Positions 363-5,681 of a stretch of 10,568 bases of DNA are shown here, in pieces. The DNA is from an uncultured delta proteobacterium (GTDB taxonomy: Bacteria; Desulfobacterota; Desulfobacteria; Desulfobacterales; JAHEIW01): assembly GCA_963706575.1 (NCBI GenBank), contig CAVPNL010000025.1:1-10568 (forward strand), read 5' to 3'. Position numbers and translations under genes: made by a program. The notes under the pieces are model-generated. The model saw nothing but the letters and a program-made list of their open reading frames with translations. It was not told where the DNA came from and did no database searches. Each line of letters starts with the position of its first letter. Position 1 is the stretch's first letter.

Positions 363-1442
363 TTAAATCGCCCGGCGCACAAAAAAGTCGAATTGCCGGG
401 AAAAATCGATCAAAGCATCCAGTTTGCTTTTTGCCCGGCCGGAATCAATAGACCCTTTTGCCCGCTCAACACCTTCCTTAAAACTGTCATCCAGCCCAGC
501 CGCTACAAATGCCGCCGCTGCATTCAACAGCACGACGTCTCTTTTCGGCCCTTTTTCACCGTCTAAAACGTTTCGGATTATTTCGGCATTGGCCTTAGCA
601 TTCCCGCCCTTGATTGCTTCAGGCGCTGCCCGCTTGAAACCATGCGCTTCGGGGATCATTTCAAAAGTATTTATTGCGCCGTCTTTCAGTTGAGAAACCT
701 GGGTGATGCCACAAATACTGATCTCGTCAAAGGTTTCTTCTCCGCATACCACAAATGCCTGCCGCATACCGAGTTTTTGAAGAACCTGAGCCATCTTCTC
801 GGTATGATGGGCATCATAGACACCCAACACCTGGGCAGTTGCTCCGGCAGGGTTTACCAAAGGCCCCAATAGGTTAAAGATAGACCGCAGCCCAACCTGC
901 TGCCGGGGTTCCGCCACCGCTTTCATGGCGCCATGAAAAAGCGGTGCATATAAAAACCCGATCCCGACATCCTGGATGCACTTCTCAACATTGGCAAAAT
1001 TGATATCCAGATTTACGCCCAGACTGATAAGCACATCAGCGCTGCCACACTGCCTGGAAGTTGCCCAGTTGCCGTATTTGGCCACCTTAAGTCCCGCACC
1101 GGCCACCACCAGCGCTGTTGCCGTAGAAATATTAAAGGTGTGGGTGCCGTTTGCTCCGTTACCGTGGGTATCGAGGATCGTTTCCTCTTCGACATTGATT
1201 TCATCTCGATCAATATTAATCAAAGGCTCATCGAGTCTAATTTTCTTTGTCTTGGCCTGCATGGCTTTAGCCGCCCCGGTAATCTCTTCGGCAGTCTCGC
1301 CTTTCATTCTCAGGGCAGTAATAAATGCGCCGATCTGAGCCGATGCCACCATACCGCTCAAAATCATCTCCATGACGTCGGTCATCTCTTTTTCGCTCAG
1401 GTGGTTTCCATTGGCTACCTGTGTGATTGCTTGAGTGATCAT
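363..1442 (-). CDS. trpD: Anthranilate phosphoribosyltransferase (TrpD family), with atypical PRPP-binding motifs
   Basis: 359 aa. Shows QIGAFITALRMKGETAEEI, TFNIST, GSADVL, FLYAPLFH, RSIFNLLGPLVNPA, DEIS and VLLNAAAA. Strong SD AAGGAGGT lies 8 nt upstream, and a Trp-rich leader precedes the gene. Confidence 0.93.
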   Translation of the reverse strand: MITQAITQVANGNHLSEKEMTDVMEMILSGMVASAQIGAFITALRMKGETAEEITGAAKAMQAKTKKIRLDEPLINIDRDEINVEEETILDTHGNGANGTHTFNISTATALVVAGAGLKVAKYGNWATSRQCGSADVLISLGVNLDINFANVEKCIQDVGIGFLYAPLFHGAMKAVAEPRQQVGLRSIFNLLGPLVNPAGATAQVLGVYDAHHTEKMAQVLQKLGMRQAFVVCGEETFDEISICGITQVSQLKDGAINTFEMIPEAHGFKRAAPEAIKGGNAKANAEIIRNVLDGEKGPKRDVVLLNAAAAFVAAGLDDSFKEGVERAKGSIDSGRAKSKLDALIDFSRQFDFFVRRAI

Positions 1443-1465: not shown

Positions 1466-1590
1466 TAGAATCCATCTCAAAACTGTCTTGGCCCAATATC
1501 TTTGTTGGTGCCCCGCCGCGCGTGTCCCGGCGAAGCCTTTAGACGAAGACGGAATCTTGAACCAAAATCCTATTTTTGAGAAGGATTCTG
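1466..1590. mobile_element. Decayed MITE-like palindromic insertion in the trpD 5' UTR
   Basis: Terminal inverted repeat AGAATCCATCTCAAAA (1467-1482) / TTTTGAGAAGGATTCT (1574-1589), 15/16 match, with weaker inner complementarity. Ends resemble the 6-208 element (TAGAA....TCAAAA). Confidence 0.6.
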
Positions 1591-1592
1591 GT

Positions 1593-1635
1593 AAAAATTA
1601 AAAAGGCCATGGGATCCAAGCCCCACGGCCTTTAA
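1593..1635 (-). terminator. Second (distal) terminator-like hairpin of the trp leader
   Basis: Minus RNA AAAGGCCGUGGG-GCUUGGAU-CCCAUGGCCUUU followed by UUAAUUUUU. The 12-bp stem has one position (1626/1609) that is a G-U pair only on the minus strand. Confidence 0.7.
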
Positions 1636-1647
1636 TTGCGCTAAGAT

Positions 1648-1685
1648 AAAAAACCGTGGGCCTTCGGGAGGAGGCCCACGGTTTT
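1648..1685 (-). terminator. Attenuator terminator (3:4) of the trp leader
   Basis: Perfect 14-bp stem 1650-1663 / 1672-1685 (AAAACCGUGGGCCU...AGGCCCACGGUUUU) ending in U6 on the minus strand. Starts 13 nt after the leader stop codon. Confidence 0.88.
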
Positions 1686-1745
1686 GCTAAACGTTATGTC
1701 AGTTTACGATGGGTGGGCACAGCTCCCTGTTAGAGGTGCGCCACC
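1666..1745 (-). promoter_or_regulatory. Antiterminator (2:3) and protector (1:2) segments of the trp attenuator
   Basis: 2:3: minus RNA GGGAG-cugu-GCCCAC (1727-1713) pairs with GUGGGC-cuc-CUCCC (1679-1666) in the terminator 5' arm and loop. 1:2: GGUGG-c-GCAC (1745-1736, overlapping the Trp codons) pairs with GUGC-CCACC (1720-1712). Confidence 0.8.
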
Positions 1746-1794
1746 ACCAGTTCGTGCATAATCGTTCAAAATCGGTTGTTTGCTTGAGCTTCAT
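1699..1794 (-). CDS. trpL: Trp attenuator leader peptide, 31 aa MKLKQTTDFERLCTNWWWRTSNRELCPPIVN
   Basis: ATG 1794-1792, three tandem TGG at 1749-1741, TGA 1701-1699. Lies upstream of trpD and directly before a terminator. WWRTS is identical to the end of E. coli TrpL. Confidence 0.88.
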   Translation of the reverse strand: MKLKQTTDFERLCTNWWWRTSNRELCPPIVN

Positions 1795-1801
1795 TATGAT
1801 C

Positions 1802-1830
1802 TGAATAGAGGGGACCCGTAAAAATGTCAA
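1802..1830 (-). promoter_or_regulatory. Putative sigma70 promoter for trpL-trpD
   Basis: Perfect -35 TTGACA (1830-1825), 17-nt spacer, -10-like TATTCA (1807-1802), then 7 nt to the leader ATG. Confidence 0.6.
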
Positions 1831-1849
1831 GAAAAAAATTAAAAAGCGC

Positions 1850-1879
1850 TTGACAAGCGTCAAGGAATCCCTTTAGAAA
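1850..1879 (+). promoter_or_regulatory. Putative sigma70 promoter for the aro leader and operon
   Basis: Perfect -35 TTGACA (1850-1855), 18-nt spacer, -10-like TAGAAA (1874-1879). A-rich UP-like tract at 1832-1845. Confidence 0.6.
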
Positions 1880-1906
1880 GCGTAAAAACCACAATGAGGA
1901 ATAATG

Positions 1907-1990
1907 ATGGCAACAACCGAACATAACATCGATCAATCCCGGCAGTACTTTTATTTTTATTTCTACCGGAGGGGTCTGCCCATGGGTTGA
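1907..1990 (+). CDS. Tyr/Phe attenuator leader peptide, (M)MATTEHNIDQSRQYFYFYFYRRGLPMG
   Basis: SD GAGGA at 1896-1900, ATGATG at 1904-1909 (1907 has the better spacing), TAC TTT TAT TTT TAT TTC TAC at 1946-1966, TGA 1988-1990. Followed by a terminator and the DAHP synthase gene. Confidence 0.88.
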   Translation: MATTEHNIDQSRQYFYFYFYRRGLPMG

Positions 1991-2026
1991 TGGATCATCT
2001 AATTTGATTTTAAGCCGCGGGCAGAC
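1933..2026 (+). promoter_or_regulatory. Antiterminator (2:3) and protector (1:2) segments of the Tyr/Phe attenuator
   Basis: 2:3: GUCUGCCCauGG (1974-1985) pairs with CCgcGGGCAGAC (2015-2026), with 8 perfect contiguous pairs that invade the terminator 5' arm. 1:2: UCAAUCCC-GGCAG (1933-1945) pairs imperfectly with CUGCC-cau-GGGUUGA (1976-1990). Confidence 0.78.
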
Positions 2027-2051
2027 GAAAGCTCGCGGCTTTTTTGTTTTT
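2012..2051 (+). terminator. Attenuator terminator (3:4) of the Tyr/Phe leader
   Basis: AAGCCGCGGGC-AGACGAAA-GCUCGCGGCUU, an 11-bp stem with one G-U, ending in UUUUUUGUUUUU (2040-2051). Confidence 0.88.
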
Positions 2052-2083
2052 AAAGGCCGTGAAAAAGATTCACGGCCTTTTTT
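2052..2083 (+). terminator. Second (distal) terminator-like hairpin of the Tyr/Phe leader
   Basis: Perfect 12-bp stem AAAGGCCGUGAA-AAAGA-UUCACGGCCUUU ending in U6 (2078-2083). Confidence 0.72.
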
Positions 2084-2111: not shown

Positions 2112-3185
2112 ATGAAATCAACTGACGATCTGAGAATTAAAGGATATCAGCCACTGACGGCGCCACAGATCTTAAAACAGGAAATTCCGATCAGTGCCGG
2201 AGCAAATGAAACGGTTGTTTCGGGAAGAGCGCAAATCGAAGCCATCCTGCGCAAGGAAGACCGCCGCCTGCTGGTGATTGTGGGGCCGTGTTCCATCCAT
2301 GATGAAGCGGCGGCCATCGAATATGCAGCCCGGCTGAATACCCTACGCAAACAGGTGGCCGACACCCTTTTCGTCGTCATGCGCGTTTATTTTGAAAAAC
2401 CGCGTACCACTGTGGGATGGAAAGGGCTGATCAATGATCCTTATCTGGATGGCACCTGCGACATGACGGCCGGATTGCGCAATGCGCGCGGCCTGTTACG
2501 GCAGATAAATGAAATGGGGCTGCCCGCGGCCACCGAGATGCTGGACACGATCACCGCTCAGTATGTTGCCGATCTGGTCAGCTGGTCGGCTATCGGGGCC
2601 CGCACCTCCGAATCCCAGACCCATCGCGAATTGGCCAGCGGTTTATCCATGCCGGTGGGCTTTAAAAACAGTACGGACGGTAATCTCTCGTCCGCCATCA
2701 ATGCATTGATGGCAGCCCGCGCCCCGCAGAGTTTTCTGGGAATAGACCAGGACGGCAAAACCTGTGTCGTCAAAACCAACGGCAACCCCTGGGTACATAT
2801 CGTACTGCGGGGTGGCAAAAGACCGAATTATGACCCCATCAGCCTGGAGGAAGCGCGCCTGAAGCTGATTGAAAAGGATTTGCCGGAGACCTTGATGGTG
2901 GATTGCTCACATGCCAATTCGATGAAAAAATACCAGGGACAGGCCGTGGTCTGGAAAAGCGTCATTGGTCAGTATCTGGCCGAAAACGAAGCCTTGATCG
3001 GCCTGATGCTCGAAAGCAACCTGCAGGAGGGCAATCAGAAATTTTCCGGTGATACTGCGGCTCTCAAATACGGTGTCTCCATCACAGATGAATGCATTTC
3101 ATGGGAGACCACCGAACAATTGCTGCTGTGGGCCCATGAAAAAATTCGACAGACGGATCCTAAAAAATTTCAGCTGGCATCCTGA
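2112..3185 (+). CDS. aroF: DAHP synthase, class I alpha (AroF/G/H family), 357 aa
   Basis: Shows GPCSIHD, RVYFEKPRTTVGWKGLINDP, IGARTSESQTHRE, GFKN, DCSHANS and YGVSITDECI. Start reassigned to ATG 2112 behind SD AAGGGG (2100-2105). The core looks closest to AroF, but feedback specificity cannot be read from the sequence. Confidence 0.93.
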   Translation: MKSTDDLRIKGYQPLTAPQILKQEIPISAGANETVVSGRAQIEAILRKEDRRLLVIVGPCSIHDEAAAIEYAARLNTLRKQVADTLFVVMRVYFEKPRTTVGWKGLINDPYLDGTCDMTAGLRNARGLLRQINEMGLPAATEMLDTITAQYVADLVSWSAIGARTSESQTHRELASGLSMPVGFKNSTDGNLSSAINALMAARAPQSFLGIDQDGKTCVVKTNGNPWVHIVLRGGKRPNYDPISLEEARLKLIEKDLPETLMVDCSHANSMKKYQGQAVVWKSVIGQYLAENEALIGLMLESNLQEGNQKFSGDTAALKYGVSITDECISWETTEQLLLWAHEKIRQTDPKKFQLAS

Positions 3186-3378: not shown

Positions 3379-4402
3379 ATGGAAACCCTTACCATCAAGG
3401 CGGACTCAGGCCCTTCCCACATATTAATCGGTGAGCGCCTGGAGAACCTGCAGCGCTATATTCCAGTGGTAAAGCCGATCATCATCACAGATGTTAATGT
3501 TGGCCAATTGTACCCCCTGGATTCAATGGCCAGCGATGTGATCACCATCGGTACCGGAGAAGAAATAAAGACCCTGGATACCGTACAGCGATATTTACGG
3601 TCACCTTATATCATCCGGGGCCGATCGCTCCGCATTTATCGTCGGTATTGGCGGCGGTATCGTCTGCGATATTACCGGATTTGTGGCTTCGACCTTTCTG
3701 CGGGGGGTGCGCTTTGGTTTTGTGGCCACCACCCTGCTGGCCCAGGTGGATGCCAGCGTCGGTGGAAAGAACGGTGTTAATTTTAAAGGATACAAAAATA
3801 TGGTCGGGCTGTTTCATCAGCCTGAATTTGTCATCTGTGATCCTGAATTATTAAAAACGCTGCCGCAGAAGGAAATCTCCTGCGGCCTGGCCGAAATTGT
3901 CAAACATGCGGCCATCGCGGATGCCGAACTATTCGGTTATCTTGAGAAGCATGCTGAAGCCATATTGGCGCTGGACCGCCAGGCGATTGCAAAGCTGGTG
4001 CGGGTGTCGGTGCGCATCAAATCATCGATTGTCAGCCGCGACGAAACCGAAAAAGGCGAGCGCCGCCTGCTGAACTTTGGCCACACCTTCGGGCATGCGA
4101 TTGAAAAAGTGACCGGTGCGACACACGGTGAGGCGGTCAGCACGGGTATGGTGATTGCGTCAGCCCTGTCTGTTAAAAAGGGCCTTCTGTCAGCGGAAGA
4201 TGACCAACGGCTGCGGGCCGTACTGAAGAATTTAAGACTTCCAACCCGTTTGGAGGCCCAACCTCAAAAAATCATGGATGCCATCACAAAAGATAAAAAA
4301 AGGGCGGGCAACCGCATCCATTTTATTCTGCTAAATGGAATCGGCAATGCCCGGGTGGATCAACTTACCTTGGAGGAACTCAAGGGTGTTTTAAATGAAT
4401 AA
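3379..4402 (+). CDS. aroB: 3-dehydroquinate synthase, interrupted by a +1 frameshift near 3586-3589
   Basis: Frame 1 reads ..GTGEEIKTLDTVQ; after skipping one base it continues DIYGHLISSGADRSAFIVGIGGGIVCDITGFVASTFLRG..TTLLAQVDASVGGKNGVN..LNFGHTFGHAIE. The restored product is 340 aa. Confidence 0.9.
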
Positions 4403-4720: not shown

Positions 4721-5543
4721 ATGATTGATGCGGATACATCCCTTTTTGGCCTGATCGGCAATCCGGTGGCACATAGCTTAAGCCCGGTGATGCACAATCA
4801 GGCGTTTGCAGCGACCGGTTACAACGGGGTTTATTTAGCGTTCAGGGTCACTGATCCGGCTACGGCGGTAAAAGGCATCGCGGCTCTGAATTTTAAAGGT
4901 GTCAGTGTCACCCTGCCCCACAAAGTTGCGGTTATGGAATACCTCGATGAGATCGACGAGACAGCAGCGCGGATCGGAGCGGTCAACACCATTATCAACA
5001 AGCAGAGCAAACTGATCGGATACAACACCGACTGTCCGGGCGCCCTGCAAGCTTTGAGGACCCGGACATCGATAAAGGATAAATCGGTGGCACTCATCGG
5101 TGCCGGCGGGGCGGCCCGGGCCATCGGATTCGGCTTGGTGGCTGCCGGCGCGGCGGGTGACCATTCTGAACCGCACGCGGGTATCCGGAGAACGTCTGGC
5201 GGCGGATCTGCAGGCTGAATTTTTACCTTTAGACGAATGGGCACCAGACCACTATGAGATTCTGATTAACACCACACCGGTGGGCATGCATCCTGACATC
5301 GATGCAACTCCGATTGCGCAGGAGAACATATCAGAAGATCTGGTGGTCATGGACATCGTTTACAATCCGCTTGATACCCGATTTTTAAAGGCAGCGGCCG
5401 CCAGAGGATGTCGCACCATCAATGGCGTTGACATGTTTGTATTTCAGGGAGCGCAGCAATTCGAACTCTGGACCGGCAAAAAGGCCCCGGTGGATGTCAT
5501 GCGTAAGGCGGTATTAGAGGCGCTGAAGAATAAAGAAACATGA
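4721..5543 (+). CDS. aroE: Shikimate dehydrogenase, interrupted by a +1 frameshift at ~5152-5153
   Basis: GNPVAHSLSPVMHN, SVTLPHK, GAVNT, GYNTD and GAGGAARA are in the first frame; VTILNRT, INTTPVGM, DIVYNP and GVDMFVFQGAQQFELWTG are in the second. Removing one G in GCG-G-CGG restores 273 aa. Confidence 0.9.
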
Positions 5544-5611: not shown

Positions 5612-5681
5612 CTCACGCAAAGTCGCTAAGTCGCAAAGAATAATAATTTAACTATAAAAACACTTGGCGCCTTTGCGTGAG
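5612..5681. repeat. Palindromic element built from octamer repeats (CGCWAAGW)
   Basis: ctca-cgcaaagt-cgctaagt-cgcaaaga (5612-5639) and inverted cttggcg-c-ctttgcgtgag (5663-5681). The outer 11-bp inverted repeat CTCACGCAAAG/CTTTGCGTGAG is perfect. Confidence 0.7.

Follow-up and report, generated by a model that had tools for sequence, protein, structure and literature searches.

The window analysed here, a stretch of 10,568 nucleotides from an uncultured delta proteobacterium, is the entire contig C25 of the source genome. It carries trpD on the minus strand and an aroFGH-type DAHP synthase gene on the plus strand in divergent orientation, with two leader ORFs in between. The features of this interval and of the two genes, with the RNA segments of each leader numbered 1 to 6, are given below.

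363..1442, minus strand: trpD, anthranilate phosphoribosyltransferase, downstream of the Trp leader (TIGR01245, 365 bits; cut-off 199)
1466..1594, no strand: repeated MITE-like insertion that separates trp terminator 2 from the trpD ribosome-binding site (23-nt terminal inverted repeats, 1460-1482/1574-1596)
1599..1633, minus strand: Trp hairpin 2 (5:6, 1633-1622 with 1613-1602) and U tract, candidate terminator 2 (-21.6 kcal/mol)
1618..1664, minus strand: Trp relay helix 4:5, 1664-1649 with 1633-1618 (-22.0 kcal/mol)
1647..1685, minus strand: Trp hairpin 1 (3:4, 1685-1672 with 1663-1650) and U tract, candidate terminator 1
1666..1727, minus strand: Trp antiterminator 2:3, about 1727-1713 with 1681-1666 (constrained folds)
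1699..1794, minus strand: Trp leader ORF of 31 aa with three Trp codons (WWW) at 1749-1741 (from sequence)
within 1802..1879, minus strand: promoter candidate, TTGACA 1830-1825, 17 nt, TATTCA 1807-1802 (read from sequence)
within 1802..1879, plus strand: promoter candidate, TTGACA 1850-1855, 18 nt, TAGAAA 1874-1879 (read from sequence)
1904..1990, plus strand: Aro leader ORF of 28 aa with YFYFYFY codons at 1946-1966 (from sequence)
1974..2026, plus strand: Aro antiterminator 2:3, 1974-1988 with 2012-2026 (inverted repeat; -29.2 kcal/mol, z -4.0; masked folds)
2012..2045, plus strand: Aro hairpin 1 (3:4, 2012-2022 with 2031-2041) and U tract, candidate terminator 1
2033..2062, plus strand: Aro relay helix 4:5, 2033-2043 with 2052-2062 (-15.8 kcal/mol, z -3.7)
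2052..2083, plus strand: Aro hairpin 2 (5:6, 2052-2063 with 2069-2080) and U tract, candidate terminator 2 (-18.5 kcal/mol)
2112..3185, plus strand: aroFGH-type DAHP synthase, gene 1 of the aromatic operon (TIGR00034, 472 bits; cut-off 173)

The nearest named relatives of the AroG protein belong to Desulfobacteraceae (75% identity), Desulfococcaceae (66%) and Desulfobacterales (60%), which points to the order Desulfobacterales of the phylum Desulfobacterota. A single trpE query (L204, E 1e-14) found no match in the source genome or in G004. The aroB gene (3379-4402) and the gene at 4721-5543, which we take to be shikimate-dehydrogenase-like, each occupy two overlapping frames, possibly due to assembly errors, and a long imperfect hairpin with a weak Rfam listing lies between aro operon genes at 5612-5681. 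A second copy of the trpD-aro locus on contig C15 (G000:C15:499472-506502) is 89-95% identical to the window, and 91% identical over the leader region. Its trpD is spread over two frames and its aroB occupies a single one, the reverse of the window, where trpD is intact and aroB is split. This copy is either a paralogue or the product of a strain mixture (genome contamination 6.39%). The MITE-like insertion, which gives 130 BLAST pieces in the genome (7 of at least 100 nt), is absent from the C15 copy and skipped by two contigs of relatives. Its partial copies are numerous in the genome and in relatives, and the insertion is outside the switch described below.

The two back-to-back promoter candidates are similar in relatives from the genus, and neither was called by the promoter scan. 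The Trp leader ORF is probably leaderless, because its ATG sits where the transcription start would fall: in all 10 genus-level trpD leaders, an in-frame ATG follows the start of TTGAC at a distance of 36-37 nt (1830-1792, minus strand of the window). The aro leaders of relatives, like that of the window, are Phe/Tyr(/Trp)-rich. Segment 2 has an alternative partner in each leader, namely a segment 1 near 1940-1945 on the Aro side and one across the Trp codons on the Trp side.

Each leader contains two consecutive U-tailed hairpins, as the earlier note had observed. Three of the four were called by the terminator pattern scan (1685-1650 and 1633-1602 on the minus strand, 2012-2041 on the plus strand), which gave 6 sites versus 1.3 in shuffles; the fourth, Aro hairpin 2 (2052-2080), was unlisted by the scan and is a perfect 12-bp inverted repeat followed by U6. 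Such tandems are rare in the source genome, with 9 entries among 1110 terminator-like sites, four of which are these leaders in the window and the C15 copy, one is the trp pair as seen from the opposite strand, and four lie elsewhere. Tandem U-tailed hairpins whose stem is of the GGACATCC type also occur at G000:C8:21039-21116 and on C4 near 275654 (minus strand); the C8 pair has a cross-pairing of -20.1 kcal/mol and no obvious leader peptide.

The cross-pairing claimed between the 3' arm of the first hairpin and the 5' arm of the second was reproduced base for base in both leaders, with the same coordinates, pair counts and G-U counts. The Aro 4:5 helix has 11 bp including 2 G-U, and none of 200 shuffles matches it. 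The Trp helix consists of 15 pairs, 2 of them G-U, and is interrupted by one G.G mismatch; the fragment 1615-1668 that contains the latter folds at -24.4 kcal/mol (z -3.35, 1 of 200 shuffles as good). Neither helix is followed by a U run, again in agreement with the first reading. The finding of one design in two different primary sequences had also been offered as independent evidence, and this argument fails: the second hairpins share 12 identical bases and a CCGYG core is common to all four stems, so that the two leaders are probably homologous and not independent inventions. A REP/BIME-like repeat was rejected, as the hairpin core was found at the two locus copies and one chance place only.

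We propose that both leaders would function as ribosome-coupled transcription attenuators in which six segments provide two successive intrinsic terminators. With an ample supply of charged tRNA, the ribosome would reach the leader stop codon and cover segment 2, 3:4 would form, and the polymerase would be stopped; polymerases leaking past terminator 1 would meet a free segment 5, and formation of 5:6 would provide a second stop. When the ribosome is stalled at the Trp or Phe/Tyr codons, 2:3 would form and terminator 1 would be absent, while the freed segment 4, together with its U tail, would capture the emerging segment 5 before segment 6 exists. Terminator 2 would then be blocked kinetically by 4:5. 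Judged from sequence and computed folds, this two-terminator relay is the probable mode of action of both leaders; leader translation, termination at each hairpin and the lifetime of 4:5 are steps that we infer.

Folds with a masked ribosome, which describe equilibrium at chosen lengths and not kinetics, gave the two outcomes that the relay predicts. With the regulatory codons masked, both leaders formed 2:3 and then, just before segment 6, 2:3 together with 4:5; with the ribosome at the stop codon, both formed 3:4 with segment 5 free, and 5:6 was added. The Trp 4:5 helix is the minimum-energy state of the stalled masked fold before the synthesis of segment 6. In the stalled trp leader at terminator 1, 3:4 is the lowest state and the barrier from 2:3 is 19.5 kcal/mol, and the antiterminator step therefore depends on a kinetic trap. 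Of the two helices that compete at terminator 2, 5:6 is ahead of 4:5 by 2.7 kcal/mol in the aro leader, with a displacement barrier of 8.7 kcal/mol, and the two tie in the trp leader, where the barrier is 15.8 kcal/mol.

These energies were compared over 108 of 152 leader rows in which all four arms could be anchored on the shared core, the rest lacking a hairpin or an anchor and some of the 108 being mis-anchored. Helix 2:3 averages -21.5 kcal/mol; the medians are -17.8 for 4:5, -18.1 for 5:6 and 10.0 kcal/mol for the barrier, and 5:6 is the more stable helix in 64 of the 108. For the relay of the E. coli his leader we computed -16.7 for D:E, -26.3 for E:F and a barrier of 15.6 kcal/mol. Compared with his, the energy gap is thus smaller but the barrier in most cases lower, so some leak of terminator 2 is possible in the open state. 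A direct pairing of segment 2 with segment 5 was rejected, since segment 2 favours segment 3 over segment 5 in 106 of the 108 leaders and is unlikely to disarm hairpin 2 directly.

The architecture recurs in related genomes. The pattern 'segment 4, U run, hairpin 2' was matched in 105 of 301 genomes of the order, and the reversed pattern used as control gave 8 hits. Among 30 order matches listed, 28 lie behind a visible Trp- or Phe/Tyr-rich leader ORF, one is cut by a contig end and one is a chance match; the genes downstream of the order loci are trpD, trpE, DAHP synthase, an ADH-synthase-like gene and an amino-acid ABC binding protein. At two loci (L213, L214) a Tyr-rich leader and tandem precede the ABC binding protein, which suggests an aromatic amino acid transporter. 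Scans with AroG of genome and metagenome collections returned mostly distant taxa, with the pattern in 3 of 159 loci, and of 13 RNA runs matching the window, each with at most 10% of words, the four that were examined are contigs of relatives and were left out of the evidence.

In the phylum, a looser pattern was found in 58 of 251 genomes (control, 24 hits in 21 genomes). The 29 new loci comprise 18 aromatic leaders, one Leu-rich leader, one TPP riboswitch, five apparent chance matches and four that read on the opposite strand only; some of the genes at phylum loci are presumably trpB2, DAHP synthase I-beta, leuA and thi4. The Leu-rich leader (L344:1606-1743, minus strand) shows the same two hairpins and the 4:5 fold before a downstream gene that we assume to be leuA-like. 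A LeuA search (8 of 61 genomes) found the full tandem at the seed locus only, and the Leu-rich leaders L368 and L370 have one clear hairpin each. At L340:1369-1570, a TPP riboswitch (58.9 bits) is followed by two hairpins of similar core, ahead of what we take to be a thi4-like gene.

A feature-blind sample was gathered by protein from the regions upstream of 49 of 53 AroG matches and 70 of 129 TrpE matches, mostly the best scoring, and contained 105 leaders with a scored leader ORF and 102 with a first hairpin. By automatic hairpin calls, which include misses (L276, L280, L309, L312 and others), a U-tailed hairpin 2 is present in 68 of the 102 (19 of 41 aro and 49 of 61 trpE leaders), and 63 of these 68 have both U tracts. 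Every one of the 68 leaders with terminator 2 carries a complement to segment 4 with a pairing energy of -8.5 kcal/mol or below, and in 53 of them 4:5 passes z <= -2 against shuffles. The 34 leaders in which terminator 2 was not detected are divided equally into 17 with neither part and 17 that keep the segment-4 complement, so 4:5 may have another use. In eight leaders (L228, L242, L245, L240, L250, L263, L296, L298) the complement between segments 4 and 5 is kept while segment 6 or its U tract has degenerated or is lacking, which may reflect decay or another output of the relay. Three trpE leaders (L282, L328, L337) have a good U tract at the second hairpin only, a his-like arrangement.

Two similar hairpins in tandem may cross-pair as a mere result of duplication, and the mirror helix 3:6, which is equally favoured by duplication and has no role in the relay model, served as the control. 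The main test set was reduced to a single protein-anchored leader for each combination of family and gene (n=48, 44 families). Its mean energy is -13.2 kcal/mol for 4:5 versus -10.7 kcal/mol for 3:6, and 33 of the 48 leaders have the stronger pairing in 4:5 (p=0.0013). When arms are given the partners of other loci of the same gene, 4:5 becomes weaker (observed -13.16, null -11.71, 0 of 5000 permutations) but 3:6 does not (p=0.31). Only one stem position varies freely; there, C occurs in segment 5 of 2 out of 22 leaders with A in segment 4, and of 9 out of 18 with G (p=0.006). The base in segment 3 is no predictor of segment 5 (p=0.45) or of segment 6 (p=1.0) at that position, and with segment 3 held at U the link between segments 4 and 5 persists (1/20 versus 5/7, p=0.0014). 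All 108 rows agree (4:5 stronger in 81 of 108; p=4e-5 at the variable position), kin rows not being independent in these statistics. By eye, segment 5 fits segment 4 in L023, L235 and L261, where both terminator stems are imperfect.

Conservation and covariation of 4:5 in orthologues had been named in the earlier note among the checks on the relay. Conservation was observed, as was the covariation revealed by partner swapping; a tree-based pairs test on 115-column protein trees, in which 2-4 independent pairs per gene stood on supported branches, went in the expected direction, almost never in the opposite one, and was too small to reach significance. Helix 4:5 thus looks selected in these alignments.

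The selection of 4:5 does not by itself imply that hairpin 2 terminates. In an alternative that we regard as unlikely, terminator 1 is the sole regulated stop, hairpin 2 is a pause or stabilising hairpin with little termination, and 4:5 is selected for a job after read-through, such as locking the open state, shielding the U-rich linker from nucleases or signalling to translation. The 17 of 34 complement-only leaders fit this explanation, as do the eight leaders that by eye keep segment 5 with segment 6 degenerate or missing, and the low displacement barrier in the aro leader. However, the detection missed terminator 2 in some of the 17 (L014, L276, L306, L322), and at least 5 U in 8 nt follow the second hairpin in 91 of 108 leaders (fewer than 5 in 17 of 108), with base pairs that are mostly G-C; L282, L328 and L337 even have their good U tract at hairpin 2 only.

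The latter three leaders, in which U tract 1 is missing, agree with the converse explanation of a plain his-type attenuator, where hairpin 2 alone terminates and the first U run serves to pair with the A runs that precede segments 3 and 5. The segment logic is the same as in his, and the U run does pair within 4:5, but at least 5 U follow hairpin 1 in 97 of 102 leaders, and hairpin 1 with its U tract was called alone in 17 of 102 (at least two being miscalls, L280 and L312). The same hairpin must be the terminator in such leaders, and we consider the his-type explanation very unlikely. The least probable explanation regards hairpin 2 as an unregulated partial terminator that arose as a tandem duplicate of hairpin 1 or shares a protein-binding motif with it, with 4:5 as a by-product; the CCGYG core of all four stems, the 12 bases common to the second hairpins and the unrelated look-alike tandem at C8:21039 (4:5 at -20.1 versus 3:6 at -17.3) are in its favour, but it predicts that 3:6 behaves like 4:5 and that segment 5 follows segment 3, neither of which holds, and in L023, L235 and L261 segment 5 matches segment 4 by eye despite imperfect 3:4 and 5:6.

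Returning to the two-terminator relay, we tentatively extend it, with somewhat less than even confidence, to a phylum-wide class of leaders in which one stalled ribosome would disable two real terminators via a strand relay and the leak would be multiplied down. If this is true, leaders rich in Trp, in Phe/Tyr and, in at least one case, in Leu share the reused module, whose one-terminator, two-terminator and his-like forms in living relatives would mark a path by which trp-type attenuators could become his-type. Some lineages would keep the relay strand without terminator 2, which may feed another output. A single-terminator attenuator is limited by the leak of its own terminator; two serial terminators would presumably lower this leak, as the earlier note had supposed, and if one signal opens both, the range of control would be widened without a repressor. 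TrpR had no match in any of the 31 genomes searched, which would favour a tighter attenuator. The family, which Rfam misses, is common in a phylum that has been little studied. Since natural variants have one, two or only the second terminator, the origin of six-segment his-type attenuators becomes testable, and a compact two-terminator relay is a useful part for low-leak synthetic switches.

To judge from their sequence, the window leaders are ribosome-mediated leader-peptide attenuators. As in the classical trpL and pheL attenuators (RF00513), there is a leader ORF with cognate codons, a set of 1:2, 2:3 and 3:4 alternatives and a U-tailed 3:4; unlike these, the window leaders add a segment 5-6 terminator tied to segment 4, and the Trp leader looks leaderless. 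No Rfam family reached its cut-off in the whole window. The Trp_leader model (RF00513) gave a weak match at 1752-1644 (25.4 bits, E 0.12, below the 41-bit cut-off), and His_leader (RF00514) gave no match in the window up to E 5, with 131.6 bits for the E. coli control. The window leaders are members of neither the Trp_leader nor the His_leader family.

Searches of the literature, covering main texts mostly outside subscription journals, found no description of a leader-peptide relay between two terminators. The portions available of PMC3896937, PMC10989985, PMC3766115 and PMC4615214 contain nothing on a second terminator, and the 'two terminator hairpins' in the portion of the last source are the classical 1:2 and 3:4. 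In the rimP leader, according to an excerpt of its description (PMC2965389), there is a second terminator in tandem, and the upstream one has a predicted antiterminator. It resembles the window leaders in having two terminators in one 5' leader; unlike them, its stems have inverse motifs, and the excerpt describes neither a leader peptide nor a relay between the terminators. An extension of attenuation to 'chains of RNA helices' is credited, in the accessible part of PMC4833913, to the comparative survey of Lopatovskaya, Seliverstov and Lyubetsky (2010). That survey may already show these leaders. It is said to cover the delta-proteobacteria.

The closest known system is the his operon attenuator of Salmonella and E. 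coli (hisL, RF00514), whose six segments and two-step relay the window leaders share in our computed and comparative analysis. The earlier note had assigned four segments and one terminator to his, and the count of four is wrong: in the Salmonella attenuator, as given in the portion of PMC4046918 at hand, A:B and the terminator E:F alternate with B:C and D:E on stalling, and D:E blocks the last hairpin. The logic of the domino relay proposed in the earlier note is supported by conservation, by the 4:5-specific covariation and by the masked folds, but its novelty is not. In E. coli his, segments C and E are look-alikes, as are segments 3 and 5 in the window leaders. The E. coli his leader has no U run after the middle hairpin C:D and hence has one terminator, whereas the middle hairpin of the window leaders is U-tailed and homologous to the only terminator of single-hairpin relatives. 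The amino acids sensed also differ from his, being Trp and Phe/Tyr in the window. The six-segment domino is therefore already known from his, and the part that seems new is only the U-tail on the middle hairpin.
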